From Phycisphaera mikurensis NBRC 102666 (GTDB lineage: Bacteria > Planctomycetota > Phycisphaerae > Phycisphaerales > Phycisphaeraceae), in NCBI RefSeq assembly GCF_000284115.1, contig NC_017081.1, positions 1 through 32,000 on the forward strand: a stretch of 32,000 bases of DNA. The letters are read 5' to 3'. Below the pieces are notes generated by a model. It was given only the letters and a program-made list of their open reading frames with translations. It was not told the origin of the DNA and ran no database searches. Each line of letters starts with the position of its first letter. Position 1 is the stretch's first letter. This document shows positions 3,571-17,038 of the stretch, piece by piece. The position numbers and the translations under genes were made by a program.

Positions 3571-4161
3571 GTGAACCTCTTCTTCGCCACCATCAACGCT
3601 CTTCTTTTCCTCGCCACGCTTTCCATGGCGGTGACCGCCTCTCGACAGCGGAAGTCGACCGAAGCCGCGGGCGTCGCCGCCGTTGCCGCCGCGGAGCGAG
3701 CCAACGAGGCCGCCGAGAAGGCCGCCAACGCTCTTGAACGAGCCGCCGAAACCGCGGGTCAGTCCGCCGATGCGGCAGCCAGGTCAGCCGACGCGACGGA
3801 GCGGGTGGCCAGCGTCAAGACCGCTCAGGAGCAGCGGGAGGTGGCGGCGCAGAAGCTCGCGAAGCTGGACGCCTCCCTCGGAACCTCCGGCAACACGAAG
3901 CAGCTCATCATCACCAACCACGGCAAAGCCGTGGCGACGGACGTGCTGGTACTGGTGGCGGGCCGCTCCTTCAATGATCATGAGGGCGTGACTGATCCGT
4001 TCCCTGAGCCGAAGGCCACCCGGGTTGGCCCGGGTGGGCAACTGATCGGTGGCTTCGTCGTGTTCCGGAACCCAGGTCGAGTGAAGCTGCCGGCCCAGGT
4101 TCGTCTGGAGTGGCGAGATGAGAGTGGGGCACCAAGGGACTGGGAAGGACAAGTGGGCTGA
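3571..4161 (+). CDS. Membrane-anchored hypothetical protein (N-terminal TM helix, Ala/Glu-rich helical region, C-terminal beta-rich domain)
   Basis: 196-aa ORF with GTG start. NLFFATINALLFLATLSMAVTA looks like a TM/signal anchor, followed by a repetitive AAERANEAAEKAANALERAAETAG helical segment and then a distinct C-terminal domain. Confidence 0.55.
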   Translation: MNLFFATINALLFLATLSMAVTASRQRKSTEAAGVAAVAAAERANEAAEKAANALERAAETAGQSADAAARSADATERVASVKTAQEQREVAAQKLAKLDASLGTSGNTKQLIITNHGKAVATDVLVLVAGRSFNDHEGVTDPFPEPKATRVGPGGQLIGGFVVFRNPGRVKLPAQVRLEWRDESGAPRDWEGQVG

Positions 4162-4350
4162 AACTTGGATCCTCGACTGACCACTGGAGAGACAGGTAAA
4201 GCATCCCGGAGCCGGCGTTCCCGCCAACTCGTCGGCGGCCACCATGGATCCGTCTTCCCGGCACCCGTAGCGGTGGAGGATCACGCTTGAGCTTTTTCTG
4301 TCGAGGCCGAACGTCCTGATGGATGAAGAAGCTCTCCATGAACATTTGCG

Positions 4351-5319
4351 TCAGAACCGGTCGGCGTCGAGCAGCGTGAGTCTGAGGAGGTTCGCTTCCC
4401 GATCGATCACCACCTCCGTGGGCTCGTAGCTCAACACCCGGGTGGTCCCATCCCCGTCGATGTCGAGCTGGAACAGGCAATCCTCGCTCCCCTGCGGGGA
4501 GACGACGACGCGGTGCCCGCCGAGCCGGTCGCGGCGGAGCACATCCAACGCCCGCGGCACCCGGTGCCACTGCGCGATCGGCTCCCGCCCACGGAGCGGC
4601 ATCACGATCCGGCCGAGAACGTCGAGGTCGTCCATGCTTTGTCGGGCGACTTCTTGGAGCTGTTCCTCGCTCCAGACCGTGAGTGCCTCGGGGCCGGCGT
4701 CGGCGTTCAGCACCGCCAGCGTCCGCTCACGGATGGCCTCGATCTGATCCTCCGGCACGGCGGGGGGCCGCCAGCTGAAGTAGTCGTCGCCGATGCTCAT
4801 CCGTTCGTGGCGCTCCGCGGCCTCCTCCGGCGAGAGCTTGTCGAAAGCCTCCCCCATCGCGTAGTCGGAGTCCCACATGAAGCGTTCCGCCAGCTCGATG
4901 AGAAACCGTGTCCACTGGTCGGTGTCCAACTCGGCGTCGTCCTCCGGCACCCAGCCCAGGTCCACCTCCCGCGCGACCCGGCGGAGGTCCGCGAGGATGT
5001 CGTCCTGCGTGGGGTCTTCTTCATCAGGGTCTTCGAGCGGGACCATGATTTGATCCCGGTATCCGAGGAAGCAGGCAACGAAGGCCGCCTCCACCGCGGC
5101 GTGCAGCTCTGGCGGCTCTTCTTCTGTCAGCAACGCCGCTCGGACCACCCGCTCCAGCAGAACGACCTGCGGACCACGCTCGAGCACGTCGAACGCCCGC
5201 ACGCCCAGCTCCAAAGGCCCCCCGTGCTTCAGGCTCCAGCAGAGCGACGCGGCTCCCTCGCGAAAGACCTTTCGCGTGGTGCCGGTGAGGGTGATGTTTC
5301 CGTTCTCGCTTCGCCACAT
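4351..5319 (-). CDS. Strongly acidic hypothetical protein (322 aa)
   Basis: ATG-started ORF that is visibly Asp/Glu-rich (DPDEEDPTQDD, WVPEDDAELDTDQW, SPEEAAERHE). No known motif recognised. Divergent from the SprT-like gene. Confidence 0.65.
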   Translation of the reverse strand: MWRSENGNITLTGTTRKVFREGAASLCWSLKHGGPLELGVRAFDVLERGPQVVLLERVVRAALLTEEEPPELHAAVEAAFVACFLGYRDQIMVPLEDPDEEDPTQDDILADLRRVAREVDLGWVPEDDAELDTDQWTRFLIELAERFMWDSDYAMGEAFDKLSPEEAAERHERMSIGDDYFSWRPPAVPEDQIEAIRERTLAVLNADAGPEALTVWSEEQLQEVARQSMDDLDVLGRIVMPLRGREPIAQWHRVPRALDVLRRDRLGGHRVVVSPQGSEDCLFQLDIDGDGTTRVLSYEPTEVVIDREANLLRLTLLDADRF

Positions 5320-5401
5320 GATTTGACTCTTTGAAGACCAGCTCGACCTGTCAACGTGCGGCGGTCGGCTCGATGTGGGGAAGAAGCACCGCTCGGTGGA
5401 A

Positions 5402-5415
5402 GTATCGTACGATAC
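5402..5415. promoter_or_regulatory. Perfect 14-bp palindrome GTATCGTACGATAC, 6 nt upstream of the SprT-like start codon
   Basis: Read directly: GTATCGT/ACGATAC at 5402-5415, in the divergent 5320-5420 intergenic region. Operator-like; there is no room for a hairpin loop. Confidence 0.35.
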
Positions 5416-5420
5416 AAAGT

Positions 5421-6116
5421 ATGGAGAAGCCCACGGCCGAGACCTATGGCGCTCTCCAGCGCGCGTTCGACCACTTCAACACGGAGCTGTTCGGCGGCCG
5501 GCTGGCGCCCGTCGTGTTCGTCTTCCTTCGAAAGCCGGGCATGCGGGGGGCCTTCCGGTCCGCGGCGTGGAAGCGGCGGGGGAAGGGCGGTGCTGCTGGA
5601 AGTGGCGGGGCGGTGGACACCGCGGACGAGATCGCTCTGAACCCGGATTACCTCCTCGACCACGACGCGGTCGAGGTGCTCGGCACGCTCGTGCACGAGC
5701 AGGTCCACCAGTTCCAAGTACTGACGGGCACGCCGTCGCGACCGACGTACCACAACGCCGAGTGGGCCGACATGGCCGAGGCGGTCGGGCTCCGCCCGAC
5801 GGCGACGGGCGCGGTCGGCGGGGCCCGGGTGGGTCAGAAGATGGAGCACCTCGTCGAGCCGGGGGGGCGCTTCGAGGCGTCCGCCGAGCGGCTGCTCGCT
5901 GCCGGCTGGGACCTCTGCTGGGAGGCGCGGGCGACCGGATCTGGAGCCGCTGCCCCGGAGGGCGAAAACGCTGGGGCGGAGCCGGCAGTCGAGCCGCCGG
6001 TCTCCAGCAAGCTCGCCTACTTCTGCCCCGCGTGTGGACTGCGGGCGTGGGCGAAGCCCAAGACGAACCTCATGTGCGGTGACTGCCTCCGTCACCTCAA
6101 GGTCGACATCGACTGA
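5421..6116 (+). CDS. SprT-like zinc metalloprotease domain protein with C-terminal zinc ribbon
   Basis: Start taken at ATG 5421 (MEKPTAETYGALQRAFDHFN...). It has the SprT-like N-terminus, the HExxH motif (LVHEQVHQF) and a C-terminal CPACG...CGDC pair. Confidence 0.75.
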   Translation: MEKPTAETYGALQRAFDHFNTELFGGRLAPVVFVFLRKPGMRGAFRSAAWKRRGKGGAAGSGGAVDTADEIALNPDYLLDHDAVEVLGTLVHEQVHQFQVLTGTPSRPTYHNAEWADMAEAVGLRPTATGAVGGARVGQKMEHLVEPGGRFEASAERLLAAGWDLCWEARATGSGAAAPEGENAGAEPAVEPPVSSKLAYFCPACGLRAWAKPKTNLMCGDCLRHLKVDID

Positions 6117-6130
6117 GCGGACGGCTTGGC

Positions 6131-7345
6131 TCAGCCGCGGAGGCAAGCGTTGCACTTGCAGGTCCCGGTGGCCGGGTCGTGCATCCACCAGTCGTTGGTC
6201 ATCCGACCGCACAGGAGGCACTTCGCAACGCGTTCCTTCCGCGTCGGCTCGCGCCGCACAGGCGCTGCCGGCGGCGGGGCGGTGAGTCCCACGCGACGCT
6301 GCAACGATGCTCGGCGTGCCGCTTCCATCGCCGCCTCGCGTTTCTGCACCTCCTGCAGGTGCGCCTCGATCTCCACGGCCATCCGCTCCCGCCACGCCCG
6401 GTAGCGGGAGTGCTCGCCGGGGTGGAGCGGGCGACCGTCCGAGGGCCGCATCTCCATCTCCACCAGCGGGTTCACCAAGACGAAGGCGCGGGCGTCTCGC
6501 TCCCACGGCCGGAGCGGCCGCCTGAAGCGCAGCGAGACGACGCTCCAATCAGATGGGTGGCCGCTGGGTTTGTCCACCGACGGGATCAGGTAGCTCGATC
6601 CCGCCCCGGCCGTCCCGCGAGGCGACGCGGGGTCGTCGTACGCGGCCTCCTCTTCGGTGCGCAGGAACAAGGGCTGGGCCTCGACGTGGGGCTCGACCAT
6701 CCAGACCTCCTGCGGGGAGAGCTGAACATTGACCTCTTCGCCGTCGATCAGGGGATCTTCGGGTTCCACGCGGACGCCGTCTCGGAGTGGGCGGAAGCGG
6801 CGGTCGATGCCCATGCGAACAAGCCGGCGGCCGCCACGCTGGAACGCGTCCCAAGCGTCGCGGAGTTCCCAGTCGAGACGCTTCCGTATCAGCAGGTGGT
6901 GGTGGGATCGCCGCCCATCGGGATCTTGCAACCGGACATCGACCGGCAGCGGTCCGGCGGTGGTTTCTACTTCCACGTGCACCTGGTCCCGCCAGCCGGC
7001 AAACTTCCCGCCGGACGCTTTGACCTTGCCCTTAAGCCACCAGCACAGGGCGGTCTGCGCCGCGGCGAGAACGGCGTTGTCCTTTCGTGCGTACCGGCAG
7101 GTCAGTTCTCCGGGCGGGTGGGCGAAGTGGGCGCAGACTCTTCGCCCTCGCTTGAAGCGGAGCGCGACGCCGCACCCCTCGTCTGGGCAGACAATCTCGT
7201 CGGCGGCACACGCTCGACGTAGCTCCAGCTCGACGGGGTCGTGGCCCCGTTCGCCCGGCTCGCCGTGCCCGACCGGCACGCTCTGGGGGTGGATGTCCAC
7301 CGTTTGAACCCGTTCGCCGGTCGAGGCTCGGATGGCGAACAGCAC
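6131..7345 (-). CDS. CoiA-like (competence protein CoiA family) putative nuclease with extended C-terminus and terminal zinc ribbon
   Basis: GTG start at 7345 with GAGGT about 10 nt upstream. The N-terminus (MLFAI...CPDEGCGVALRFKRGRRVCAHFAH) matches the CoiA N-terminal CxxC...HFAH pattern. The C-terminal CLLCG...CKCNAC is zinc-ribbon-like. Confidence 0.55.
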   Translation of the reverse strand: MLFAIRASTGERVQTVDIHPQSVPVGHGEPGERGHDPVELELRRACAADEIVCPDEGCGVALRFKRGRRVCAHFAHPPGELTCRYARKDNAVLAAAQTALCWWLKGKVKASGGKFAGWRDQVHVEVETTAGPLPVDVRLQDPDGRRSHHHLLIRKRLDWELRDAWDAFQRGGRRLVRMGIDRRFRPLRDGVRVEPEDPLIDGEEVNVQLSPQEVWMVEPHVEAQPLFLRTEEEAAYDDPASPRGTAGAGSSYLIPSVDKPSGHPSDWSVVSLRFRRPLRPWERDARAFVLVNPLVEMEMRPSDGRPLHPGEHSRYRAWRERMAVEIEAHLQEVQKREAAMEAARRASLQRRVGLTAPPPAAPVRREPTRKERVAKCLLCGRMTNDWWMHDPATGTCKCNACLRG

Positions 7346-7385
7346 GTCAGACGCTACCTCTTCTTGGTCCGGCTGCCGAACCAGC

Positions 7386-7445
7386 GGGGTGTCGGGGCAG
7401 AGCCCTGACCGCGCGGCGGAGCGTCAGCGACGCCGCGCGCGGCCG
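7386..7445. repeat. Double-hairpin repeat, copy 1 (just after the radC stop)
   Basis: GGGGTGTCGGGGCAGAGCCCTGACCGCGCGGCG...CGCCGCGCGCGGCCG. Hairpin a is GTCGGGGC/GCCCTGAC (one G-T pair on the + strand). Hairpin b is CCGCGCGGCG/CGCCGCGCG(CG)G. It is near-identical to copy 2 at 8936-8994. Confidence 0.6.
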
Positions 7446-7481
7446 CGGAAAGCGGACCGGACCCTGGCCTGCGGTCCCGCC

Positions 7482-8219
7482 TCACCCCGCCGCCCGGATG
7501 CTCACGCTCCCCTGCGAGGCGACGACGATGTGGTCGAGTACCTCCACCCCCAGCGTCCGGCCCGCCGCTTCCAGGCGTCGCGTCACGGCGTGGTCTTCGG
7601 GGCTCGGGCTCGGGTCTCCGCTTGGGTGGTTGTGCACGAGCAGGACCGCCGCGGCCGCGTCTCTGAGCGTCGGCCGGAAGACCTCCCGCGGGTGCACAAG
7701 GCTCGCGTCCAGCGTGCCCACCGTCACCCGGTGCGTGCCGATGACATGGTGCCGCGTGTCCAGCGTGACAACGTGAAACTCCTCCTGCACGCCGTCGGTG
7801 GCGAGGCGTGCGAAGCGACGCCGGCAGAACGCGAGGGCTGACGCGGTGCCGGTGATCGTTGCCTCGGGCGGGGCCTCCGCCGCGGCCGCCACCCGACGGC
7901 CCAGTTCCACCGCGGCGAGCACCCGGCCCAGCGTCCGCCGCTTCAGGCCCGGGACCGCCTCGCCCAGCTCCGCGTCGCCCACCGAGAGCAGCCGCCGCAC
8001 GTCCCCACCGCACAGGCCCATGATCCGCCGGCCGGCCTCCTCGGCGTCGGCCTTGGTCCGTGTGTCCGCGTCCACCACCACGGCCACCAGTTCCGCGTCG
8101 GTCATGCCGGCCGCGCCGTCACGCCGGATGCGCTCACGGGCGACGTCAACGCCCACCGCGGAACGCCGGGGGTAGAGGCCGGCGGAGGGGTTCGGGTGGC
8201 TGGAAGGCTGAAAGGTCAT
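7482..8219 (-). CDS. radC: RadC-like JAB-domain protein
   Basis: ATG at 8219 preceded by GGAG 7 nt upstream. It carries the JAMM/RadC signature VHNHPSGDPSPSPED and helix-hairpin-helix-like N-terminal half. The longer track ORF (to 8324) would run through the conserved upstream hairpin. Confidence 0.9.
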   Translation of the reverse strand: MTFQPSSHPNPSAGLYPRRSAVGVDVARERIRRDGAAGMTDAELVAVVVDADTRTKADAEEAGRRIMGLCGGDVRRLLSVGDAELGEAVPGLKRRTLGRVLAAVELGRRVAAAAEAPPEATITGTASALAFCRRRFARLATDGVQEEFHVVTLDTRHHVIGTHRVTVGTLDASLVHPREVFRPTLRDAAAAVLLVHNHPSGDPSPSPEDHAVTRRLEAAGRTLGVEVLDHIVVASQGSVSIRAAG

Positions 8220-8505
8220 CGCATCGCTCCAAGGGGCACCGCTCGGGCGCCGGGTGTCGGGATGCAGGGGTCGCGCGAATCTCACGCTCTCGGGCCAACA
8301 CGTTTTTGGCCCCTCCCTGCACAAGCAGGGAGGGAGGGGTCAAAACACGCAGCTCTCACCGGGCTGCCGCCCGGAGCGACCGCAGCGCGGGCACGCCATA
8401 ACGGAGGCGAGGAGGGCGGGAGGATCTGATCGCAGCGCAGCGGAGAACTCCACGCGGAGCGAGGAGGCGGGTCAGATCCGAGTGGCCGACGAGCCGACGG
8501 CGGGG
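8220..8505. promoter_or_regulatory. Structured leader element R1 upstream of radC
   Basis: Contains bulged hairpin H1 (8307-8342), the conserved AGCGACCG block, long-range stem GGATCTGA (8422-8429)/TCAGATCC (8472-8479), and distal block CGACGGCGGGG. Paralogous to R2 and R3. Confidence 0.65.
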
Positions 8506-8580
8506 CGTGACGGCGCGGAGGAAGAGGAGGGCGGTGGCCCGGTGCGGCCAGCCGGTCCCCTCGGGGGCCGGCGTTCCTTC
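8490..8580. repeat. About 90-nt repeat at the distal edge of R1 (partner of 14996-15083)
   Basis: CGAGCCGACGGCGGGGCGTGACGGCGCGGAGGAAGAGGAGGGCGGTGGCCCGGTGCGGCCAGCCGG...GGCGTTCCTT aligns by eye, with few mismatches and one small indel, to 14996-15083. Confidence 0.6.
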
Positions 8581-8613
8581 GCCCGCCTGATGGCTCGTTG
8601 CGGCCGCCTGCGG

Positions 8614-8838
8614 CTACGGCCTGTCAAGATAGGGCATCGCTGCCCGCATTGCATCGTGTTCGTGCCCGTAGGCGGGGCGGGCGGTGCCCTCGCGGAGCAG
8701 CTTCCCGATGGTGAGGCGTGGAACGCCCCGGGCCACTCGAACCTTCGCGTCGTCCGGGAAGTCGGTCCGCTCCAGGCTGGCCGCGGCGACGCCGCCGTCG
8801 TCGCTGACCAAGAGGTAGAGGGGTGGGGGGATGCTCAA
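8614..8838 (-). CDS. Small hypothetical protein (74 aa), possibly excisionase/AlpA-like HTH (weak)
   Basis: TTG start, no clear RBS. The sequence is non-shadow-like (LYLLVSDDGGVAAASLERTDFPDDAKVRVARGVPRLTIGKLLREG). The FP..vrv..g..R..l pattern is only loosely HTH_17-like. Confidence 0.3.
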   Translation of the reverse strand: MSIPPPLYLLVSDDGGVAAASLERTDFPDDAKVRVARGVPRLTIGKLLREGTARPAYGHEHDAMRAAMPYLDRP

Positions 8839-8935
8839 GGGACCGCCGGTTTACAACGCGGGGCGTCAATGTGCGTGCGCTTGTGGCTGCGCCGCCTGGC
8901 GTTGAGCCTGCTCAAGCGGACGCCGGGAAGGCAAC

Positions 8936-8994
8936 GGGGTGTCGGGGCAGGGCCCCGACCGCGCGGCGACCCGGAGGGGAGCCGCGCGCGGCCG
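8936..8994. repeat. Double-hairpin repeat, copy 2 (just after the ardC stop)
   Basis: GGGGTGTCGGGGCAGGGCCCCGACCGCGCGGCG...GCCGCGCGCGGCCG. Hairpin a is a perfect GTCGGGGC/GCCCCGAC here. Confidence 0.6.
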
Positions 8995-9049
8995 AGACCC
9001 GGCCACGGCGAAGCGTTCGCACGACCGCTCCAGGCCCCCAGCCCCGGGC

Positions 9050-10030
9050 TCACTCGGGGCCGGTCTTTCGGTCCTCCGCCGCCGGGCGGATCAGGTCAAC
9101 CGCCTTCTGCGCAGCGCCCGCCGCCTTCAGGAAGAAGCCGCTGTCGGTCTGCATCCGGTCCAGCCAGCCAGCGACGTACGCGGCGCTCATCTCCTCGGTG
9201 ACCGGGGCAATCCCGCAGTGAGCACAGAGCAGGGACGCCGCCAGCTCCGCGACCATCTCCTCCTCGGCGTAAGGATCCAGCAGTCCGGAGCCCGCCTCGG
9301 TGATGCCCCTGCGGCCCAGCCGCGACGCGTGCCCGGTGCTGTGCGCGATCTCGTGGAAGAGCGTTGAGAAGTAGGCCTCGGGCGTTTCGTAGCTCGCCAG
9401 CGGCGGCGTCACCACCACGTCGGTGCGGCAGTTGTAGTGCGGGGTGACCTCCATCTCCACGCACCCCGGGGCCCCGGGCGACCGCAGGAAGCCGGTCGCC
9501 ACCTCGGCGCAGGCCCGCAGCTCGGGCGGGCAGGCGTCGGGCTCCAGCGGGACCTCCCCCGGCGCGGCCTCGGTGTCCAGCCCGTCGACGTCCTCGACGT
9601 TGAAGACGTTGTATGTCTTGAGGAAGGCCACCCGCTTCTTCTCCCCGCTGGGGTTCTTCTTGTCCTCCTTCTCCATGAAGTTCCAGAAAACGATGGGCAC
9701 GCTCTTGGATCCGGCCCGCACCTGCCCCCCGGCTTGAGCCGCCTGGCGGTAGGTCATCCACAGCGGCCGGGTGAAGCCGCGCTTCCGCTCGGCGAGCCAG
9801 AGCAGGAAGACGTTCACGCCCCGGTACTTCTTCCCGGTGACGAGGTTGGCCGGCAGGAATCCCGACTCGGTGCCGGTGTGCTGGGGCCGCCACGGGACGG
9901 TTCCCGCCGTCAAGGCCTCCACGATTCGGTCGGTGACCTCTTGGGCGATGTCCCGGCGGGGCTTGGGGGCGTCCTTGCGGGCGGGCTTGCGGGTGCGGGT
10001 GCTGGACGATCGGGAAACGGAAGCGGACAC
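9050..10030 (-). CDS. ardC: ArdC antirestriction protein (N-terminal ssDNA-binding DUF1738 domain plus C-terminal zincin metalloprotease)
   Basis: EVTDRIVEALTAGTVPWRPQ, KKYRGVNVFLLWL, PIVFWNF and LFHEIAHSTGH are characteristic of ArdC. I place the start at GTG 10030, preceded by AGGAG with a 6-nt spacer. The ATG at 10156 would translate through conserved hairpin H1. Confidence 0.9.
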   Translation of the reverse strand: MSASVSRSSSTRTRKPARKDAPKPRRDIAQEVTDRIVEALTAGTVPWRPQHTGTESGFLPANLVTGKKYRGVNVFLLWLAERKRGFTRPLWMTYRQAAQAGGQVRAGSKSVPIVFWNFMEKEDKKNPSGEKKRVAFLKTYNVFNVEDVDGLDTEAAPGEVPLEPDACPPELRACAEVATGFLRSPGAPGCVEMEVTPHYNCRTDVVVTPPLASYETPEAYFSTLFHEIAHSTGHASRLGRRGITEAGSGLLDPYAEEEMVAELAASLLCAHCGIAPVTEEMSAAYVAGWLDRMQTDSGFFLKAAGAAQKAVDLIRPAAEDRKTGPE

Positions 10031-10335
10031 GGCGAACTCCTGGAGCCCACAAGGGGCGGGATGAATCGCAGGGGCTACGCGTGTCGCTGCACGCTCCGGG
10101 CCAAGCCATTGCTTTTGGCCCTCCCTGCGCAGGCAGGGAGGGAGGGCCAACAGCAACCAACACAGGGGGCTCTCCCGGGGCGAAGCGACCGAGAGGCGGG
10201 AACGGCATGACGGAGCGGGACGGGGCCTCTGGGATCTGATCGCCCCAGCCGACGCAGTCGGCTCGGGCGACCGCGAAGCGGCGGGTCAGATCACGAGCCC
10301 CTCGCCCCGCGACGGCGGGACGTTCAGGCCGTCAG
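10031..10335. promoter_or_regulatory. Structured leader element R2 upstream of ardC
   Basis: H1 at 10115-10150 (14 bp with a 4-nt AGGG bulge), AGCGACCG block, stem GATCTGA (10233-10239)/TCAGATC (10286-10292) enclosing the perfect inner hairpin AGCCGAC-gca-GTCGGCT, and distal block CGACGGCGGGACG. Collinear with R1 almost throughout. Confidence 0.65.
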
Positions 10336-10923
10336 GGAGTGCAGCCACGGGTGGGCCCCGGCTTGCCGGCTCCGCCGGCGGACCTCAGAAGGCGGGCGAA
10401 GCCCGCCCCGACGGCTGCCCGGCCGCGCCGGGTGTCCTCTGCTTGCGGCCCGGAAGCGGGAGCAACCGGGACTGGACGCCGCGCGGGGCCCAGAGGGGCC
10501 TCCGGGGGCGGGAAGCCCAGCCGGGAACCGGCTCGGCGGCCTGCGGAAGCAGGGCCCGCCCACGAGTCCCCCGCGCCGCCCCCGTGGCGGACGGCCCGGG
10601 GGCCGAGCGAGCAAACCCGCACCGGAACCCGCCCGGCGGCCACGCCGCCGGTCCGCTCCCCGGCCGGGCGACGGCCGCGGGGCTGGCCGTCCCCGGCGAG
10701 CCCCGCGGCCCCAAGCCGGGCCGCTTCCGCCCCCCAAGATCAACCGCCGCCCGGGCGGCCGGGCGATGTGCCTGCGCAGCGGGGACACGGCCCGGTCGCT
10801 CGGGCTTCCGAGGGCGGGCCACGTTGCCCGCACGCCTCCGGTGGGCGCTCCTCCGTGCCACTCCAGTCAAGACCCATCCGGAACCACCAGGCGGGATCCC
10901 GCCACCCCGCCCGGCCGCTGTCG
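10336..10923. other. About 590-bp extremely GC-rich region without a credible ORF
   Basis: All overlapping track ORFs on both strands are Arg/Pro/Gly/Ala shadows. The region is dense in short GC hairpins (GGCGGGC-gaa-GCCCGCC, AGCCGG-gaa-CCGGCT, palindrome GGCGGGATCCCGCC). Confidence 0.5.
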
Positions 10924-11196
10924 TCAGTACTCGTCCGGGAACAGGATCGTCGTTGAGCTGCGGTCCGCTTCGGTGATGACGTAAACCTCGCCGTGGGGGG
11001 TGTCGAAGCGGCTGAGGACGCGGCCCCCGTGCTTCACCGCGAGGCGGTTGGCCTCGGCGTCATTGGGGCACAGAAGTCCAATGTCCCCCCGGAGGTGTCG
11101 CCGGAGGAGCCCGGCGAGATCTCTGATGGTGAAGATCTGCACCACACTGACGGTGGCGACAGTGCGGCCGAGCGGGAAGGCGCGGGTGGGGTTCAT
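10924..11196 (-). CDS. Small conserved plasmid/ICE-associated protein (90 aa), function unknown
   Basis: ATG at 11196. The pattern LGRTVAT...RRHLRGDIG...NDAEANRLAVKHGGRVLSRF...VYVITEADRSSTTILFPDEY matches, from memory, a small protein family recurrent on plasmids/ICEs that ends in ITEADRSxTT(I/V)LxPxEY. Confidence 0.7.
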   Translation of the reverse strand: MNPTRAFPLGRTVATVSVVQIFTIRDLAGLLRRHLRGDIGLLCPNDAEANRLAVKHGGRVLSRFDTPHGEVYVITEADRSSTTILFPDEY

Positions 11197-11203
11197 GGTC
11201 TGG

Positions 11204-11246
11204 GGTCTTCGGGTGGGGTGGGTGAGGAACACCCACGCGGAAGACC
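11204..11246. promoter_or_regulatory. Two-tier hairpin abutting the start of the 90-aa gene
   Basis: Outer stem GGTCTTC (11204-11210)/GAAGACC (11240-11246), inner stem GTGGGTG (11218-11224)/CACCCAC (11230-11236), loop AGGAA. Located 8 nt from ATG 11196. Confidence 0.45.
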
Positions 11247-11338
11247 GCCCCGCGGGAGCGGGGCGATCGACCTCGGCGGAACGAAGAGAAACCGCGTGCC
11301 GGTGCCGCCGGCAGCGGATCCGGCCTGGGGCGGTGGGG

Positions 11339-11596
11339 TCAGTCCCCGCCGCCGGCTTCTTCTTGAGCCTCGTGGATCCAGTCGAAGGCCAGCGAGGCGA
11401 CCTTCTCGAGGATGGGCAGGTCCTGCAGCCCGAAGCTGGTGGAGTCCTTCCACTCCCCGTCGACCTGGTAGCCGCGGGAGAAGGTGGCTTGGTGCCGGAC
11501 GCCGCTCTGAGTCTCGTTGGCCCAGATGGCCGCCTTGATGGTGCCCACGCGGACGGTGTGGGCGGGACGGGTGGTGTTGCTGTGGTGCTTCGCCAT
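11339..11596 (-). CDS. Small conserved plasmid/ICE-associated protein (85 aa), function unknown (possibly a small ssDNA-binding fold)
   Basis: ATG at 11596 with AGGAA about 9 nt upstream. VRVGTIKAAIWANETQSGVRHQATFSRGYQVDGEWKDSTSFGLQDLPILEKVASLAFDWI resembles, from memory, a recurrent small mobile-element family (IKAxIWxN...R.Y..dgeWk.S.sF). The fold guess is inference only. Confidence 0.7.
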   Translation of the reverse strand: MAKHHSNTTRPAHTVRVGTIKAAIWANETQSGVRHQATFSRGYQVDGEWKDSTSFGLQDLPILEKVASLAFDWIHEAQEEAGGGD

Positions 11597-11850
11597 GAGA
11601 GGGTTTCCTTTCGGAGGGGGGTGAGGGGGTCCGTACGCAAGAACGGCGGGCCCCCTCACCCCCCGGGAGGAAACCGCCGGCGGGTCCGCCGCGGGCGAGA
11701 CCGGCGCAGCGACCGGAGGCGGGAGCGGCGTGCCGGAGGCGAGGGTGTGCCGGGAATCTGATCGCCCCCAGTCATGGGGAGCGACCCGAGCGCAGAGAGG
11801 GCGGGTCCGATTCCGGGTGCTCCCGCAGCCGACGGCGGGACGCTCAGGCC
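11597..11850. promoter_or_regulatory. Structured leader element R3 upstream of the 85-aa gene
   Basis: 14-bp perfect GC hairpin GGGGGGTGAGGGGG (11616-11629)/CCCCCTCACCCCCC (11651-11664). Shares with R1/R2 the AGCGACCGGAGGCGGGA block, stem GGAATC (11753-11758)/GATTCC (11809-11814), and distal CGACGGCGGGACGCTCAGGCC. Confidence 0.6.
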
Positions 11851-12269
11851 GGATGGGAAGCGCAGCGGGCTCGACCGTGGAGGCCACGCCGGCACAGGCG
11901 AAGCACGACGTCGCCCCCGCACGTCCTGCCACATCCTCGTGGTGCTCTCTCACCCGGCCGGCTCGTGCAACGCGACCCGGCGGTCGACTTCAAAACGCTC
12001 TCGCGTGGTGACGTGACGGGGGCAAAGGCTCCGCCCGCTCGCGCTCCTCACCGCCCATCCAGAAGATGGCCCGGCCTTCACGATCCACGCGTCGTGGGCT
12101 TTGACGGTGGGGCGGTCCTGCAGGCCGCACGGCCGGGGTTGCAGTTGGTGGCCTTTGCCCGGCGCCCCTCTCCATCGGGTGGTCGATCGTCCCGCTCTCG
12201 CGGGGCGGCGCAGCCTCTTCTTCGCCCATCCCGCTCGGAGCAGCCGGGTCAGATTCAACCCGCGTCGAC

Positions 12270-12511
12270 CGATCATTCGTCCGCCACCTTGTTGTTTCGA
12301 GAGCGACCCTCCACGAAGTTTGCTGGTCGCCGCGCTCGGGTTCGTGCCCATGTCGATCGCCACCGTCAGCGGAGCCGAGGTGCAGAAGTCGCTGGCCGCC
12401 GTCGTCATCGGCGGGGCCGTCAGCACCACCCTGCTGATGCTGGTCGTGCTTCCGGCGATCTGCCGGATCTGGCTTCCGATCGACCCAAGGGTTCCGCGGG
12501 GACCCAGTTGA
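12270..12511 (+). pseudogene. Truncated 3' remnant of a CzcA/CusA-family RND efflux pump gene
   Basis: The C-terminal part of track ORF 12101..12511 reads AALGFVPMSIATVSGAEVQKSLAAVVIGGAVSTTLLMLVVLPAICRIW, the conserved last TM region of heavy-metal RND pumps. No upstream pump sequence is present, and homology fades near 12270-12320. Confidence 0.7.
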
Positions 12512-12536
12512 GCGACCGCGAGCCAACGATGAGGCA

Positions 12537-14258
12537 ATGCCACGGCTCCAGCACCTCTCCAGCGGCGACCGCAACTGCCGGTTCATGCCCGTCGACCGGC
12601 GGGTGCCTTTCCGACTCAGTGCGTTCTGGCGGCACCTCGACGACCTCGGGCTGACCCATCCAGACCGGCTGGATCCGGAGCGTCTGATCCGGCGTGGTTG
12701 GCTCCGCCCTCTGTTCACCCTCTCCGCGGAGAAGGCTGGCTCTGAGGACGCCCCCAGCCGGGTCGATCTCTGGCTCGGCACCCGCCTCGGCGACCGCTTC
12801 GACTCCTTTGCAGGCGACTGGTGGTCGGCTGACCTGGACCGGGTCGAAGACCCCGACACCGACGCGATCCTGGCGGCCGGCCGGGAGCCGACCGCCCCCC
12901 AAGCGGGCGAAGAAGACGATTGGCACGCGGACCGGATCGAGGTCTACCGGTACCACCAGGCCTTCCTGGTTGCCGATTTGCAGGAGCGCTGCACGTCCCG
13001 GAGCGACCCCCTCGCGTGCGATCTCGACGGGGCGCACGCGGCGCTGCAAAGCAACCAGCAGCGTCAAGCCCGCGAAGCCGCTGCCGTTCGAAAGCAGTGG
13101 GCAGACATCGCACCCGTCCTCGACCGCGTCTCGCTCTGGCGGACCGCCGTGAGCACCCACGCATTCCCGGGCCTGACGCCGGCGGACGGATCCGACGCCT
13201 GGGTCTGGGCCGACGCGGAAGCCGACCTGCTCGCTCGCGACGCCGAGACCGGCGCGGCGTGGGAGGAGGACATCCGCGCCGCGTACCTGACGACCTGGGA
13301 GCGGTGGCGGAGGATGCTCCCCGGGGGGCCGCTCGCCTCCCCCAAGCTCGTCGGCCTGTTCCGCCAGGACGTGCAGCACGCGATCGCGGCTGCAGAGACC
13401 ACCACCGGGCAAAGCGTCGACTTCCTCGACGAAACTTGGGACTACGGGCGCCCCTGGCACGCGGACGCGAGCAGGGGTCGCCGCTCCTGGGCGAGGCTGC
13501 TGGAGGTGCTGCCCTTCGAAGAAGACGTCGCGATGGTGGAGTTTCCCGTGCGGGCCCGCATCTACCTCCGCGGCCTCCAGCACATGGCGTGTCGAACGCT
13601 CGACGAGACCGACCTCTTCCAGGCCGTCTCGCCGGTCCGGCACCGGCCACTCGTCAACCGCATCCTCCTGAGCTTCCGCCGCACGCACGAGGACCTCGAT
13701 GTGAGTCTCAGCAGCGACCCGAGAGCCGTCCTCCCAGCGAAGGAGCGGATCACCAGCATCCACCAGACCCTCCTTGACCTCGAGAAGGCGCTCATCGCCT
13801 GGAGCATCCGGGTCACGAACCCGGCGAAGGAGCCAGACCTCAGAAAGTGCATGAAGCAACTGCTCGGATTCATGCTGGACCAGCAGGGCTGGTCTGGTGG
13901 GGAGATCGCCACCCGGAAGGGACAGCTCGAGAAGCTCTGCGAGGGACGCAGTGGGAGCAAGGCGCACATCACAGGCGAGCTTCCGCTCATCGACATGGCC
14001 GATGTTCCGCAGGCGCCGCCGGCGTTGCAGGAGTTCTTCATCGCCGCGGTCAACTTCCTCGTGGGCCGGAACCACGCCGCGCACAGCTCCAGCGTCGATC
14101 GATCCATCATCTATGTGCAAAAGGACGAGGAGCGGGACGAGCACGTCGGCGGGCGGATCCTCACCGGCGCTCTCGTGGTGTTCATGGAGCTGACGGCCGC
14201 CCTCGCTGAGGAGGCGGGAACGGCTGCTACCGGCACCGGTGGTGAAGCCTGCTCCTGA
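12537..14258 (+). CDS. Hypothetical 573-aa protein with C-terminal HEPN-like RNxxAH motif
   Basis: Long ATG ORF of diverse composition that starts 25 nt after the RND remnant stop. About 60 residues from the C-terminus, FLVGRNHAAHSS fits the Rx4-6H (RNxxAH) HEPN signature in a helical context. No other domain recognised. Confidence 0.7.
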   Translation: MPRLQHLSSGDRNCRFMPVDRRVPFRLSAFWRHLDDLGLTHPDRLDPERLIRRGWLRPLFTLSAEKAGSEDAPSRVDLWLGTRLGDRFDSFAGDWWSADLDRVEDPDTDAILAAGREPTAPQAGEEDDWHADRIEVYRYHQAFLVADLQERCTSRSDPLACDLDGAHAALQSNQQRQAREAAAVRKQWADIAPVLDRVSLWRTAVSTHAFPGLTPADGSDAWVWADAEADLLARDAETGAAWEEDIRAAYLTTWERWRRMLPGGPLASPKLVGLFRQDVQHAIAAAETTTGQSVDFLDETWDYGRPWHADASRGRRSWARLLEVLPFEEDVAMVEFPVRARIYLRGLQHMACRTLDETDLFQAVSPVRHRPLVNRILLSFRRTHEDLDVSLSSDPRAVLPAKERITSIHQTLLDLEKALIAWSIRVTNPAKEPDLRKCMKQLLGFMLDQQGWSGGEIATRKGQLEKLCEGRSGSKAHITGELPLIDMADVPQAPPALQEFFIAAVNFLVGRNHAAHSSSVDRSIIYVQKDEERDEHVGGRILTGALVVFMELTAALAEEAGTAATGTGGEACS

Positions 14259-14312
14259 CGGCCTCTCGGACCGCGATCGCTGCCCCTCATTCGCCGGAGT
14301 ACCTTCGGAAGG

Positions 14313-14738
14313 ATGCCGAAGAGGACGACCCTGCTTGCTCCGAGGCTGCTGCTCGCCGTGCCGCTCGCGCTGGCGATCGCGGGTGTTCTCCTCTCCCCGT
14401 GGTTCGACGAGCCCACCATCTCAACGGTGACCAGCGCGGGCTTCGTCGTACACGCTTCGGAAGCCTCCTCCGGTGTGGCCGGGCGGCTGGAAGACGCTCC
14501 GGCCGCGGCGCCGCGTCCGGGGTGGCTGGCCGCACACCACGCGGTCGTCGCTTCGAACGATCCCGGCGCGACCCGAGACGCGAAGCGTGTCCTCCTGCTC
14601 TTCGGCCTGGCCGCGGCGCTGGTGATCGTCCTCGTCGCGCCGGTGTCCCGCGGGTCTCCGTCGCTGGGGCCTTGGCTCCCGCCATCCCCTCACGGCCGGG
14701 TCGTGGAGGCACCGCCCGCACCGAACTTCCATCCGTGA
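14313..14738 (+). CDS. Small putative membrane protein (141 aa, two predicted TM helices)
   Basis: ATG at 14313 preceded by GGAAGG. Hydrophobic stretches are LLLAVPLALAIAGVLLSPWF and VLLLFGLAAALVIVLVAPV. No homology recognised. Confidence 0.45.
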   Translation: MPKRTTLLAPRLLLAVPLALAIAGVLLSPWFDEPTISTVTSAGFVVHASEASSGVAGRLEDAPAAAPRPGWLAAHHAVVASNDPGATRDAKRVLLLFGLAAALVIVLVAPVSRGSPSLGPWLPPSPHGRVVEAPPAPNFHP

Positions 14739-14995
14739 GGCCTGAGCCCCTCGCACCGGGCCGAAGCCCGGCGCGTCGAGACACCTTCATCGTCCGGACC
14801 GCACGACATCCTCTGAATTTGCTTCTTGGCTTCACGGGCGACCTTGGGATCCGAGCGGCGGCATCGAGCTTGATCGCCACCGATCTGCCCGGCTGCGCGG
14901 GGAGGCCGTACGTCGACACCGTCGACCTGAAGATGGAGGTCCGGGCGGAAGCACGAGCGGCCCGAGCCGCTCCCGACGGAGCGGCGAGCAACAGA

Positions 14996-15083
14996 CGAGC
15001 CGACGGCGAGGCATGACGGCGCGCCAGAAGAGAAGGGCGGTGGACCGGTGCAGCCAGCCGGACCCCGGAGGCGGCGTTCCTTT
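14996..15083. repeat. Partial (distal-half only) copy of the R1-type element
   Basis: CGAGCCGACGGCGAGGCATGACGGCGCGCCAGAAGAGAAGGGCGGTGGACCGGTGCAGCCAGCCGGACCCCGGAGGCGGCGTTCCTT aligns to 8490-8580. The H1 hairpin and GATCTGA stem are absent. Confidence 0.55.
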
Positions 15084-15199
15084 CCTCTCTGCACAATGGA
15101 TTAGAGACTTGACCTCCGTTCCCGGCCCAGGAAGCGAGGCCTCACGCGGCTCAATCCATAAACGCCTGCGCGTGACCGGCGTCCTTGGCTTCCACTGCA

Positions 15200-17038
15200 A
15201 TGATCGGCCGCATGGAGTACACCATCGAGCGGTTCATGTGGAGCTATCAGGCACACTTCCGCATGGCCGCGGAGTTTGCGGCCGAAGGCGTGGCGAAGCA
15301 ACTGGGTCTGGAGCTTGAGCCAGAGGTCTTCCTGGTGGGTCTGCGGGTCGAGGAGCCCGCGGCGGTTGTTCATGCGGCTTGCGTGGAGCCAGAGGATCAC
15401 CACTGGGCCGATTCGGCAAGCATGGATCACCTCGCCGAGGAGATCGAAGCGGAGGTCAAGCGGGACCCGGCTGCGGAGATGTTCATCAGCCACCCCGTTG
15501 GGGCACGGCGTTACGCGGAGGGGCTGCGTGCCGCCGCCGTGCGGCGCCTCATCCTCGGACACCTCGAAGCCTGCGACCACCGGCCGCCCGGCCGACGCAT
15601 CCTCGTGTCCGGGGCGGTCCGCCGCGACGACCACTGGATCTGCATGGTGTTGACCGTGGACGAGCGGGTGTGGGAGGCCGTGCCCTCCATCGAGATGACC
15701 GGGCGGGAGGACCACCGCGGCAGCGTGTACCACGTCCCCGCGAGCCTCGCCGAAGCGGCGGTGAGGGAACTCTTCGCCGAAGTCTCGCGTGCTTTGACGA
15801 TGCCCGATGCCGGATCGGATCTGCACTTCCTCGACGCCTACGACGAACTCCTTCGAAGGGCTGGCGCGCGGTTCTTCTTCGGGCTGATCTCCCGGGGAGG
15901 CTTCGGGCAGCGGGGTGACACGCGGCAGTTTGCCGCTCTCGACGGTCTCTCGCTCGCGGCCTATGAGAAGCAGGAGGCCCGGGGGCGCATCGTCTTGCTC
16001 GGGCCCCTCGCGGCCGCGTCCGACGACGCATGGGCACCGCCTCTTTCGATCCGGTTCCGGGAGCCCCTCTCGATCCACAACCTCCGCGGCCTGCGGAAGG
16101 TGCTTTCCCTCACCAATGATTCCACCGCCGCGGTCTGCACGCCGGACGGTGTGATCGGCACCGCGTCCGGAGTGGGGAGCGCCGAGCCCGTTGCCGGCCG
16201 GCCGGTTCTGGCGTGCTTTGAGGGCCGAGCGGCGTGGAGCGTCCACGCGGAGGGCCGGGAGCTGATGCGGATTGAAGACGGCCGCCCCGGGCTTCCCGCT
16301 CAGCCTCTTGAACCCGTCGACTTCGCCTTCGAGCTCCGCCGGCGGGTGCCGGGGCTCGGGCGGCAAGACGCGGACGCTCTTGCCGGCCTTGCCACGACGC
16401 TCGCTGGCGCCGACCACGGGGCCGTGCTGGTGGTGACACCCGACGCGGCGGCGGAAGCGGGGCGGCTGCAGGCGACCTCATTGCCCATCGAGCCTGTCAC
16501 GTTGACCGAGCCACTGGCGCTGACCTTCGCCGGCATCGACGGGGCCACCCTCTGCGACGCCCGGATGCAGGTGCACGCCATCGGTGTGATCCTCGACGGG
16601 CTCGCCACCGAGAAGGGCGATCCCGCCCGCGGCGCCCGCCTCAACGCGACTCTGCGGTACGTCGAGTCGAGCCCGGGGCGTCGCTGCGCCATGGTGGTTT
16701 CGGAGGACGGAGGGATCGAACTGCTCCCGAAGCTCAAGCCAGCCGTCCACCCCGAGGAACGCCGTGCGGCTCTTGCCGAGCTGGCGCGGCTAGCCGACGA
16801 TGACCCCGAGCGTCACGCCCGCAAAGATGAGCTGGCGGCCATTGAGCGCGTCCGGCGTTGCGCTCACACGCTCGAAGATGATCACTGCGCAGCCGCAAAC
16901 CGGGACCTCGCGTCCATCGAGAGCCGATTCTACAAGGACGCCGAGTTCAAGATCACGACGCCGCCTTGGCGGGTGGACCCGTCTTTTGCGCCGGAGCGAG
17001 ACCTGCGAGAAGACGCGCCGCGAACCACGCAAGACTGA
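15200..17038 (+). CDS. Hypothetical protein with C-terminal diadenylate-cyclase-like (DisA_N/DAC fold) domain, RHR motif degenerate
   Basis: Track ORF 15185..17038; ATG candidates at 15200 and 15212. The C-terminal region HGAVLVV...IDGATLCD...VHAIGVIL...GARLNATLRY...AMVVSEDGGIELL is collinear with the CdaA/DisA motifs GALIVI...HDGAVII...AAAGCYL...GTRHRAA...IVVSEETGGISL. The N-terminal two-thirds is unrecognised. Confidence 0.7.
   Translation: MIGRMEYTIERFMWSYQAHFRMAAEFAAEGVAKQLGLELEPEVFLVGLRVEEPAAVVHAACVEPEDHHWADSASMDHLAEEIEAEVKRDPAAEMFISHPVGARRYAEGLRAAAVRRLILGHLEACDHRPPGRRILVSGAVRRDDHWICMVLTVDERVWEAVPSIEMTGREDHRGSVYHVPASLAEAAVRELFAEVSRALTMPDAGSDLHFLDAYDELLRRAGARFFFGLISRGGFGQRGDTRQFAALDGLSLAAYEKQEARGRIVLLGPLAAASDDAWAPPLSIRFREPLSIHNLRGLRKVLSLTNDSTAAVCTPDGVIGTASGVGSAEPVAGRPVLACFEGRAAWSVHAEGRELMRIEDGRPGLPAQPLEPVDFAFELRRRVPGLGRQDADALAGLATTLAGADHGAVLVVTPDAAAEAGRLQATSLPIEPVTLTEPLALTFAGIDGATLCDARMQVHAIGVILDGLATEKGDPARGARLNATLRYVESSPGRRCAMVVSEDGGIELLPKLKPAVHPEERRAALAELARLADDDPERHARKDELAAIERVRRCAHTLEDDHCAAANRDLASIESRFYKDAEFKITTPPWRVDPSFAPERDLREDAPRTTQD

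Follow-up and report, generated by a model that had tools for sequence, protein, structure and literature searches.

Hairpin-headed gene cassettes as a candidate establishment region of a planctomycete conjugative plasmid

Introduction

What is the role of a set of co-oriented genes, separated by long and structured spacers, near the start of an 81-kb contig of Phycisphaera mikurensis NBRC 102666? The first 32,000 nucleotides (nt) of this contig (NC_017081.1, hereafter C2), which we call the window, carry at 6131-11596 six minus-strand genes: g85 and g90, named like the other short open reading frames (ORFs) here after the length of their products in amino acids (aa), ardC, g74, radC and a gene for a 404-aa protein. 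A first-pass annotation, made from the letters of the window, had likened this array to the leading region of a conjugative element, with anti-defence functions expressed early after entry.

To our knowledge, experiments have established early anti-defence expression driven by single-stranded DNA for F-like enterobacterial plasmids and a few other plasmids only, in all of which sigma-70 hexamers can be recognised; conjugation has hardly been studied in Planctomycetota. In F, ColIb-P9 and many other plasmids, early expression comes from Frpo/ssi hairpins (ssi, single-strand initiation) formed by the entering strand (PMC11541004, PMC6294495), and the anti-defence islands with Frpo that are oriented along the transferred strand (T-strand) have been surveyed by Samuel et al. 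(2024; PMC11541004). In R388, from which the known function of ArdC derives, ardC lies within the establishment module of the leading region (PMC7213743).

We propose here, with a probability of about one half, that the array is the establishment region (anti-restriction and DNA handling) of an 81-kb Trb/RlxS conjugative plasmid, and that hairpins repeated 5' of its genes would serve as single-strand initiation signals.

Results

All six annotated genes are real, with a coding-type third-position GC content (GC3) of 0.83-0.88, genes being called by this measure because of the 70% GC of the sequence. The spacers between them measure 142, ~890, 211, ~390 and 136 bp, and their description as long and structured also holds: their folds are significant, the ardC spacer being structured beyond shuffled sequences with z = -5.1 as RNA and z = -6.0 as DNA. 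When each spacer was compared by blastn with the whole genome, the spacers were found to be paralogous copies of one module of ~350-400 nt, which match each other and a further site at 54 kb of C2, always in the same orientation. Read in gene sense, the copies have four blocks in common, CGTCCCGCCGTCG, ATCTGACCCGCC, GGCGATCAGAT and CATGCCGTTCCCGCC, whose pairing gives an outer and an inner helix enclosing a variable apex. This structure of ~150 nt is called hairpin 1; its apex varies freely in sequence and length, its own stems being kept. It is followed on its 3' side by a second hairpin, TTTTGGCCCCTCCCT...AGGGAGGGGCCAAAA, then by a ribosome-binding site and the start codon.

Searched with a covariance model of hairpin 1, the genome yields exactly four copies; C2 has them all and the chromosome has none. 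They are located 5' of g85 (module at 11597-11936, minus strand, with hairpin 1 at 11712-11855, then another GC-rich hairpin and the ribosome-binding site; 133 bits), of ardC (module at 10031-10380, minus strand, hairpin 1 at 10189-10335; 133 bits), of radC (module at 8220-8582, minus strand, hairpin 1 at 8380-8520 and then hairpin 2; 98 bits) and of g164, a 164-aa ORF at C2 53444-53938. In the ardC module, hairpin 2 (~10105-10150) reads CCCTCCCTGC...GCAGGGAGGG, with runs of T and A on its flanks. Among 150 relatives, a single copy was found, 5' of g85 in the genome G028; ten copies are present in three metagenomic g85 loci (L023-L025), and a sixteenth lies 5' of ardC in the metagenomic contig L026. 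All 16 copies, which in C2, G028 and the four metagenomic contigs head ardC, radC, g85 and other small ORFs, are co-oriented with the downstream gene and stand ~115-300 nt 5' of its start codon. The hairpin element is, as far as these collections reach, confined to a narrow lineage, since its exact three-block signature has zero matches in two large public collections (genome contigs and metagenome contigs), its covariance model has no match in 80 distant g85 loci, and only one of the 150 relatives carries it. A truncated 5' part of a radC-type module, 85% identical to 8488-8579, is also present at 14994-15082 (minus strand), just 5' of a plus-strand gene for a DACNG/DACNH protein and with no obvious gene of its own.

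The pairing of hairpin 1 is kept by covariation. In an alignment fitted to the covariance model, 86.8% of the cells are paired, versus 32-45% with slid partners, and covariation is above that of 500/500 shuffles. As such an alignment leans towards its own model, the 16 copies were realigned de novo for each strand. On the strand that is the template of the downstream genes, 95.5% of the cells are then paired (26-37% when slid), nine pairs show double changes, and the covariation score is 0.267 versus 0.114 (reached by 0/500 shuffles). The RNAalifold consensus of this strand reaches -28.0 kcal/mol with 25 pairs, nine of them compensatory, and comprises an outer, a middle and an inner helix, whereas that of the gene-sense strand reaches -11.8 kcal/mol with 17 pairs, three of them compensatory, and loses the outer helix. 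Compensatory changes are seen even among copies of the same replicon (GAACG/CGTTC, GAGCG/CGCTC and CACG/CGTG). In the outer helix, the changes confined to one side of a pair (C-G to T.G in five copies, G-C to G.T in two) fit the template strand only, because on the sense strand they would give A.C mismatches. Finally, by minimum free energy the template strand is the more stable one in 15/15 copies (z = -3.05 versus -2.24), composition-matched shuffles explaining 3.45 of the 5.85 kcal/mol strand difference. Taken together, this evidence favours folding of the template strand, by a moderate margin.

The likeliest reading is a single-strand initiation element similar to Frpo/ssi but of a new sequence type, and its serious rival is an RNA leader. 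The modules could be structured 5' untranslated leaders, that is, cis-regulatory RNAs comparable to the radC RNA motif (Rfam RF01754; Weinberg et al., 2010; PMC2864571); a duplex promoter that escaped recognition would drive them, and they would co-ordinate the translation or stability of an establishment regulon. The radC motif, a known RNA class listed in the cited paper, provides a precedent. Such a leader would suit a module that always lies 5' of the start codon, with the second hairpin and a ribosome-binding site downstream, and whose highly conserved unpaired blocks, CCCGCCGTCG and CATGCCGT, resemble ligand- or protein-binding internal loops. It fits less well with the weak de novo consensus of the sense strand and its lost outer helix, in which the one-sided changes would be mismatches in RNA, even if the middle helix of the model-fitted alignment does contain G.U cells. 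The sense strand of the ardC copy also beats its shuffles (the z = -5.1 given above), but the z-scores of the sense strand are near zero, -0.2 to -1.6, for the g85-type copies. Furthermore, a cmscan of 4000-16000 against Rfam matched no family at E <= 1, RF01754 included, and no promoter was found upstream: a sigma-70 promoter scan of both strands of 6000-12600 (6.6 kb) gave 0 sites, and no convincing sigma-70, ECF-type (GGAAC...CGTC) or sigma-54 motif was seen by eye in or around the hairpin. We consider an RNA leader to be possible, if rather improbable.

The modules could alternatively be duplex-DNA control regions of a repressor regulon, similar to the CUP repeats (which we take to be the >400-bp repeats described before seven transcription units, in the IncN plasmid pKM101) or to Reg576 operators, or else templates of antisense RNAs, their hairpin potential being a by-product of palindromic operators or of the antisense transcript. 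Repeated upstream regions that co-regulate establishment genes are indeed known, as the >400-bp repeats that precede seven transcription units, with putative ArdK/ArdR binding, and as the operators of the Reg576 regulon of p576 (PMC6294495), and the direct repeat CCGTC is present in both arms of the hairpin. However, what the compensatory changes between copies of the same replicon keep is the pairing and not a fixed operator sequence, the free variation of the apex is of the same kind, and no repressor candidate was identified, whether like ArdK, ArdR or Reg576. As for antisense RNAs, which the fold of the template strand would suit equally well, there is no promoter-like site on the plus strand. 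Control at the level of duplex DNA or of antisense RNA therefore appears unlikely to us.

Does the replicon that carries the array have the means to transfer itself? C2 is 81,157 bp long, with 70.0% GC, and is one of the two contigs of an assembly with a completeness score of 99.97%, the other one being the chromosome (3.80 Mb, 73.3% GC). It begins right at a gene's stop codon, ends without terminal overlap and would fit a finished circular plasmid record. The conjugation machinery, whose absence would have spoken against the first-pass annotation, is found on this same contig: genes for TrbI, TrbG, TrbF/VirB8, TrbL, TrbE/VirB4 and TrbB/VirB11 of a Trb type IV secretion system (C2 60558-69924), for the coupling protein TraG (C2 70315-72255), for a relaxase of the RlxS type (C2 72252-74162; NCBIfam relax_RlxS, 8.5e-46, with a score of 157 bits that is far below the equivalog cut-off of 850) and for a TraF peptidase (C2 74332-74928), all on the minus strand. 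If the replicon is circular, this block (C2 60558-74928) stands on the low-coordinate side of the array, where it had been predicted.

In the systems studied, the relaxase gene enters the recipient last. The array is co-oriented with rlxS-traG-trb, one strand being the template for all of these genes. In ICEMlSymR7A, which has an RlxS system, the origin of transfer (oriT) is located between the rdfS-traF-msi107 operon and rlxS (PMC11963761). By synteny, the candidate oriT of C2 would be the traF-rlxS spacer (C2 74163-74331), an AT-rich stretch of 169 bp with a perfect 11-bp inverted repeat. With oriT placed there and the relaxase gene entering last, the plus strand would be transferred from near 74.2 kb and would be at once the transferred strand and the template of the array. 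The element integrated in G028 has the order traF-ardC-...-[hairpin]-g85-g90-rlxS-traG-trb, with all genes co-oriented, and this gene order lends independent support to the predicted polarity. In G028, g90 is followed by a clear terminator, and rlxS has a canonical promoter, TTGACG-N17-TATAAT, on its 5' side; no nick-like motif common to the regions 5' of rlxS in C2 and G028 was found.

These data suggest the following as the likeliest course of events. The candidate oriT would enter the recipient first, followed by the replication/partition region, an AbiE pair and then the window with the array. The hairpins would fold on the incoming single strand and act as initiation signals analogous to Frpo/ssi, for transcription, for priming or for both, so that ArdC, RadC, g85-g90 and their neighbours could be made before or during the synthesis of the complementary strand. 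The genes that surround the relatives of the array are typical of leading regions (UmuD/UmuC, a methyltransferase, a pair made of a helix-turn-helix protein and an M78 peptidase, and Fic). The lack of an ordinary sigma-70 promoter in 6000-12600 is in line with this course too, in a lineage that uses canonical promoters elsewhere, as 5' of rlxS in G028.

Several points weigh against this proposal. The array and the candidate oriT are ~13-19 kb apart and are separated by replication/partition and AbiE genes, and the hairpin copy of g164 (C2 53.4-54.2 kb) is at ~61 kb from this oriT, a distance probably due to the ~41-kb cargo that splits the array. The arms of the hairpin have no recognisable -35/-10 hexamers, the best matches seen by inspection being 3-4 of 6 with a wrong spacing. 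Of the energy difference between the strands, ~60% goes back to the G-richness of the template strand, the count of G.U versus A.C on the model-fitted alignment (18 versus 10) gives no clear strand signal, and the hairpin copies are a mixture of paralogues and orthologues, not independent samples. Lastly, circularity is at most a prediction for C2, as are its nick site and the polarity of its transfer. The leading-region reading of the first-pass annotation is retained for the conjugative replicon, the co-orientation and the presence of ArdC; the place of the array on the leading side of oriT is a predicted one, and the CoiA label applies to an N-terminal domain only (see below). The single-strand activity of the hairpins is a candidate activity, as is the anti-defence role of g74, g85, g90 and a neighbouring 322-aa protein.

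The modules are part of larger units. Four of these (g85-g90, ardC, radC and g164) are full cassettes made of a 5' module and one or two genes, and two of the four are closed by a 3' GC-rich hairpin of a second type ('family B'). This 3'-end hairpin follows ardC at 8932-8994 (minus strand; GGCCGCGCGCGGC...GCCGCGCGG) and, 83% identical, follows radC at 7382-7445 (minus strand), 5' of the 404-aa gene; in relatives it has the same position, behind ardC (L026) and radC (L025). g74 and the 404-aa gene are without hairpin 1 and have in common with the cassettes only downstream leader and 3'-hairpin sequence. Comparison with the metagenomic contigs brings out shared blocks: module, g85 and g90 together are ~80% identical in DNA over 1.0 kb to L023, L024 and L025, module, radC and 3' hairpin are 81% identical over 1.2 kb to L025, and module, ardC and 3' hairpin are 71% identical over 1.5 kb to L026. 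As judged from these blocks, the cassettes move as units. In particular, the radC cassette is interposed in C2 between g74 and the 404-aa gene, whose counterparts are adjacent in L026. In L025, the g164 orthologue and its module are 3.3 kb 5' of g85; in C2, the g164 cassette and g85 are ~41 kb apart, with copper, Cus and other metal-resistance cargo between them. Because g164 is near g85 in L025 and the edge of the cargo is a truncated RND-pump fragment, the array was probably contiguous before the cargo was inserted. This fragment, the C-terminal part of a pump gene at 12017-12511 (plus strand), is the right edge of the island, with the cargo boundary at ~12.3 kb; it matches C2 49006-49157, being 81% identical to the end of a gene for a 1206-aa pump (C2 45581-49198).

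That the array consists merely of accessory cassettes shuffled by recombination between repeats, in an integron- or MITE-like way and with no link to conjugative entry, is the least probable of the readings: the order of module, gene and 3' hairpin does differ among C2, L023-L026 and G028, a tyrosine recombinase gene is present on C2, a truncated module copy exists (14994-15082) and the candidate oriT is 13-19 kb away, but the elements are located 5' of genes with none after the last gene (14 bp separate the 404-aa gene from the next one, for a SprT-like protein), attC-type core sites are lacking, all copies are in conjugative-element contexts, the absence of the element from the chromosome and from 149/150 relatives shows that it is not a genome-wide repeat, and neighbours such as ArdC, UmuDC and a methyltransferase fit establishment functions. 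Integron gene cassettes proper were rejected, as the long element is 5' of the genes and no attC-like core sites were seen; instead of an IntI-type integrase, the only recombinase is the above one, of the generic phage-integrase family (C2 58083-59180, plus strand), ~46 kb off.

The g85-g90 pair comes first in the array. The two genes (g85, 11339-11596; g90, 10924-11196; both on the minus strand) remain adjacent in three metagenomic contigs, with ~70% protein identity, and in the G028 chromosome. The expectation that homologues of the small ORFs would be found in mobile contexts was borne out, as g90 is found on 182 plasmid records and a tyrosine integrase lies within 6 kb of g85 relatives at 29/80 loci. 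g85 has 16 homologue clusters, 0 with a Pfam family, and 213 genomic loci in public genomes, nearly all in Planctomycetota and often with several copies per genome. Its family is found on at least seven contigs of one metagenome-assembled genome of Pirellulaceae (L061, L071, L082, L083, L085, L099 and L103) and on at least four contigs of another, and appears to be carried by an element that became multi-copy in genomes of planctomycetes. The integrated RlxS/Trb element of G028 (G028:C1 2480868-2504559, L020-L021) has two g85 paralogues, one directly after trbI and the other heading the g85-g90 pair 5' of rlxS.

Structure prediction followed by Foldseek, which had been suggested for the small proteins, was informative in part: g85 and g90 fold confidently, but neither has a significant match in the PDB. 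The AlphaFold2 model of g85 (pLDDT 85.9) consists of four beta strands and a C-terminal helix, without a PDB match at E <= 0.001. An assignment of g85 to the single-stranded DNA-binding proteins of the PC4/Whirly/PUR type was considered on account of this predicted beta4-alpha topology and rejected, Pur-alpha being found by Foldseek only at E ~0.5 and with TM scores of 0.3-0.4. The alpha/beta protein g90 (AlphaFold2 pLDDT 94.4) is without significant match among solved structures, two unnamed phage proteins matching it at TM 0.79. Its family (194 homologue clusters, no Pfam family) is either free-standing or forms the C-terminal domain of methyltransferase-like proteins (DUF6094 or 'type I restriction-modification subunit M'), these fusion proteins being located on PAPI-1-like integrative and conjugative elements (ICEs) and on Vibrio plasmids. 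In the Pseudomonas aeruginosa plasmid NZ_CP124633.1, for instance, the g90 fold makes up the last ~90 residues of a 482-aa DUF6094 protein (L005 7825-9270), whose gene, on a PAPI-1/pKLC102-like element, is followed by one for a DEAD-box helicase. Orphan methyltransferases of conjugative elements may have the g90 domain as a common adaptor.

The identities first given to ArdC and RadC are confirmed by Pfam domains and intact catalytic motifs. ardC (9050-10030, minus strand) encodes, from a GTG at 10030, a 326-aa protein with a single-stranded DNA-binding N-terminal domain (ArdcN, PF08401, 5.9e-39) and a zincin metallopeptidase domain (MPTase-PolyVal, PF18818, 2e-25) with HEIAH (HExxH) at residue 228. 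The annotated TTG start at 10156, from which translation would read through a conserved hairpin, is probably false; the GTG at 10030 is preceded by a GGAG ribosome-binding site, and 326 aa is the length of the L026 orthologue (61% identical). radC (7482-8219, minus strand, with a start that may be as far as 8324) encodes a RadC protein of the JAB/MPN+ metalloprotease fold (PF04002, 7.3e-39) whose H-x-H-P-x6-S-x2-D motif, HNHPSGDPSPSPED, is intact (HxHPSG...S..D). It has a chromosomal paralogue with 62% protein identity (C1 3372956-3373601); over the 3' part of the plasmid gene, the two share 80% DNA identity, a closeness that is unusual between chromosome and plasmid and suggests a recent exchange.

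g74 (8614-8838, minus strand, TTG start) is a conserved gene, with 82% identity to a 75-aa ORF of L026 (tblastn, E = 2e-35), where this counterpart is directly 5' of the only close homologue of the 404-aa gene. The latter (6131-7345, minus strand) encodes a protein with Cys clusters at both ends, and its CoiA-like label is justified in part. On its own, the protein reaches CoiA_N with E = 0.003 only, short of the gathering score. An exhaustive search gave 130 representative relatives, and among 40 aligned ones CoiA_N is found in 38 (best 9.7e-15) and DUF7830 in 23, while the CoiA nuclease domain (CoiA_nuc) is found in one and, by domain search, is not recognisable in the 404-aa protein. A search of the PDB with a profile of the family found nothing. 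The protein is, by its domain content, a member of a CoiA_N and DUF7830 family and not a demonstrable CoiA.

Beyond the array, a SprT-like zinc metalloprotease is encoded convergently at 5331-6116 (plus strand; Pfam SprT-like, 7.1e-07; PHROG 6361, 1.1e-16), with HEQVH and a C-terminal zinc ribbon, and to its left lies the gene of the acidic 322-aa protein (4351-5319, minus strand). The latter protein is linked to the island by position alone and is a near-orphan, with one partial match, on a Granulicella plasmid, and no relative in the PDB. Searches of Pfam, NCBIfam and PHROGs gave no family for g74, g85, g90 or the 322-aa protein, and a PDB sequence search with g85, g90, the 404-aa and the 322-aa proteins gave no match at E < 0.05. 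The GC-rich spacer at 10381-10923 (~76% GC) is particular to this plasmid: blastn finds no counterpart for it in L023-L026 or G028, and it has no convincing ORF, those present translating into Arg/Pro/Gly-rich junk. Between the island and the copper genes (12537-17038) are found a 573-aa protein without family and the DACNG/DACNH (CdaG-type) protein. A DNA-level search of plasmids gave no close relative of the island.

As to the rest of the replicon, parA (C2 78154-79191, plus strand) is preceded by iteron-like repeats, in a low-GC (52-60%) stretch at C2 77507-78092 that comprises a 17-nt direct repeat in four copies, a 12-nt repeat in three and a 17-bp palindrome, and that is probably a partition site and/or a replication origin. 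The adjoining 548-aa ORF (C2 75449-77095, minus strand), which has no Pfam family, could be a Rep protein. Two AbiE-type toxin-antitoxin/abortive-infection pairs bracket both ends of the array-plus-cargo region: AbiEii (1-1068) and AbiEi_3 (936-1739) on the minus strand at one end, and AbiEii (C2 54307-55275, plus strand) with a weakly AbiEi-like gene (C2 55284-56321, minus strand) at the other.

Discussion

Our results point to a hairpin family, kept by covariation and probably folded on the template strand, as the organising element of a putative establishment region. A more specific version of this reading is that the modules form an undescribed class of single-strand initiation signals without sigma-70 hexamers, which would be recognised on the T-strand by a dedicated factor, for which g85-g90 are the candidates; modules and gene pair together would make up portable cassettes of conjugative elements in Planctomycetota. 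g85-g90 are put forward because they are the pair that always comes first, g85 has a topology like that of single-stranded DNA binders, and the g90 fold recurs on plasmids, in methyltransferases of ICEs and in phages. We regard this version as speculative and rather doubtful.

If the hairpin works on single-stranded DNA, the strategy would be much more widespread and more diverse in sequence than is revealed by searches for Frpo homologues, and the 16 aligned copies would be a concrete model for finding further elements. g85, g90, g74, g164 and the CoiA_N/DUF7830 family are conserved candidates, restricted to mobile elements, for establishment or anti-defence functions.

How does the array compare with known systems? 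The backbone of C2 resembles that of ICEMlSymR7A and of Tn4371-family elements, which have the order rdfS-traF-msi107-oriT-rlxS-traG-trb (PMC11963761, PMC2789088): the order traF, rlxS, traG, trbB...trbI and the RlxS-like relaxase are common to them, and RadC-like genes are also found there among the accessory ORFs. C2 differs in being a plasmid with ParA and iterons in a planctomycete host, in which no rdfS was identified, and in its hairpin-headed cassettes, which are undescribed for those elements.

At the level of the repeated modules, three comparisons can be made. The radC RNA motif is found in mobile elements 5' of genes for RadC, anti-restriction and DNA-binding proteins. The structured element described here is likewise present 5' of such genes; it differs from RF01754 by the lack of a cmscan match, by its lineage and by a fold favoured on the template strand. 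With the CUP/Reg576 regulons, the array shares the presence of one conserved upstream sequence before several establishment units, ard genes included, and, as with CUP-type repeats, its repeats probably drive the shuffling of cassettes too. Here, however, it is base-pair covariation, as expected of a folded single strand, and not a fixed operator, that keeps the repeat.

The third comparison is with Frpo. Although a direct test against Frpo was not possible, no similarity to its sequence was detected in the hairpin modules. Their stem lacks the sigma-70 -35/-10 hexamers, the defining feature of Frpo, and their hairpin of ~150 nt is included in a larger module with a second hairpin. By these sequence features, the hairpin element falls outside the defined Frpo family; it may work in a similar way through another recognition mode. 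The setting is also different, with a high-GC planctomycete host, an RlxS/Trb backbone and an array that starts ~13 kb from the candidate oriT. On the other hand, the array resembles Frpo/ssi leading-region islands in (i) a co-oriented gene set for which the predicted transferred strand is the template, (ii) a known anti-restriction gene, ardC, joined by UmuDC and methyltransferases in relatives, (iii) a long imperfect hairpin repeated 5' of several units, and (iv) a predicted location on the side of oriT that is away from the relaxase gene. To these known systems, our analysis adds the cassette architecture and the family of template-strand hairpins.

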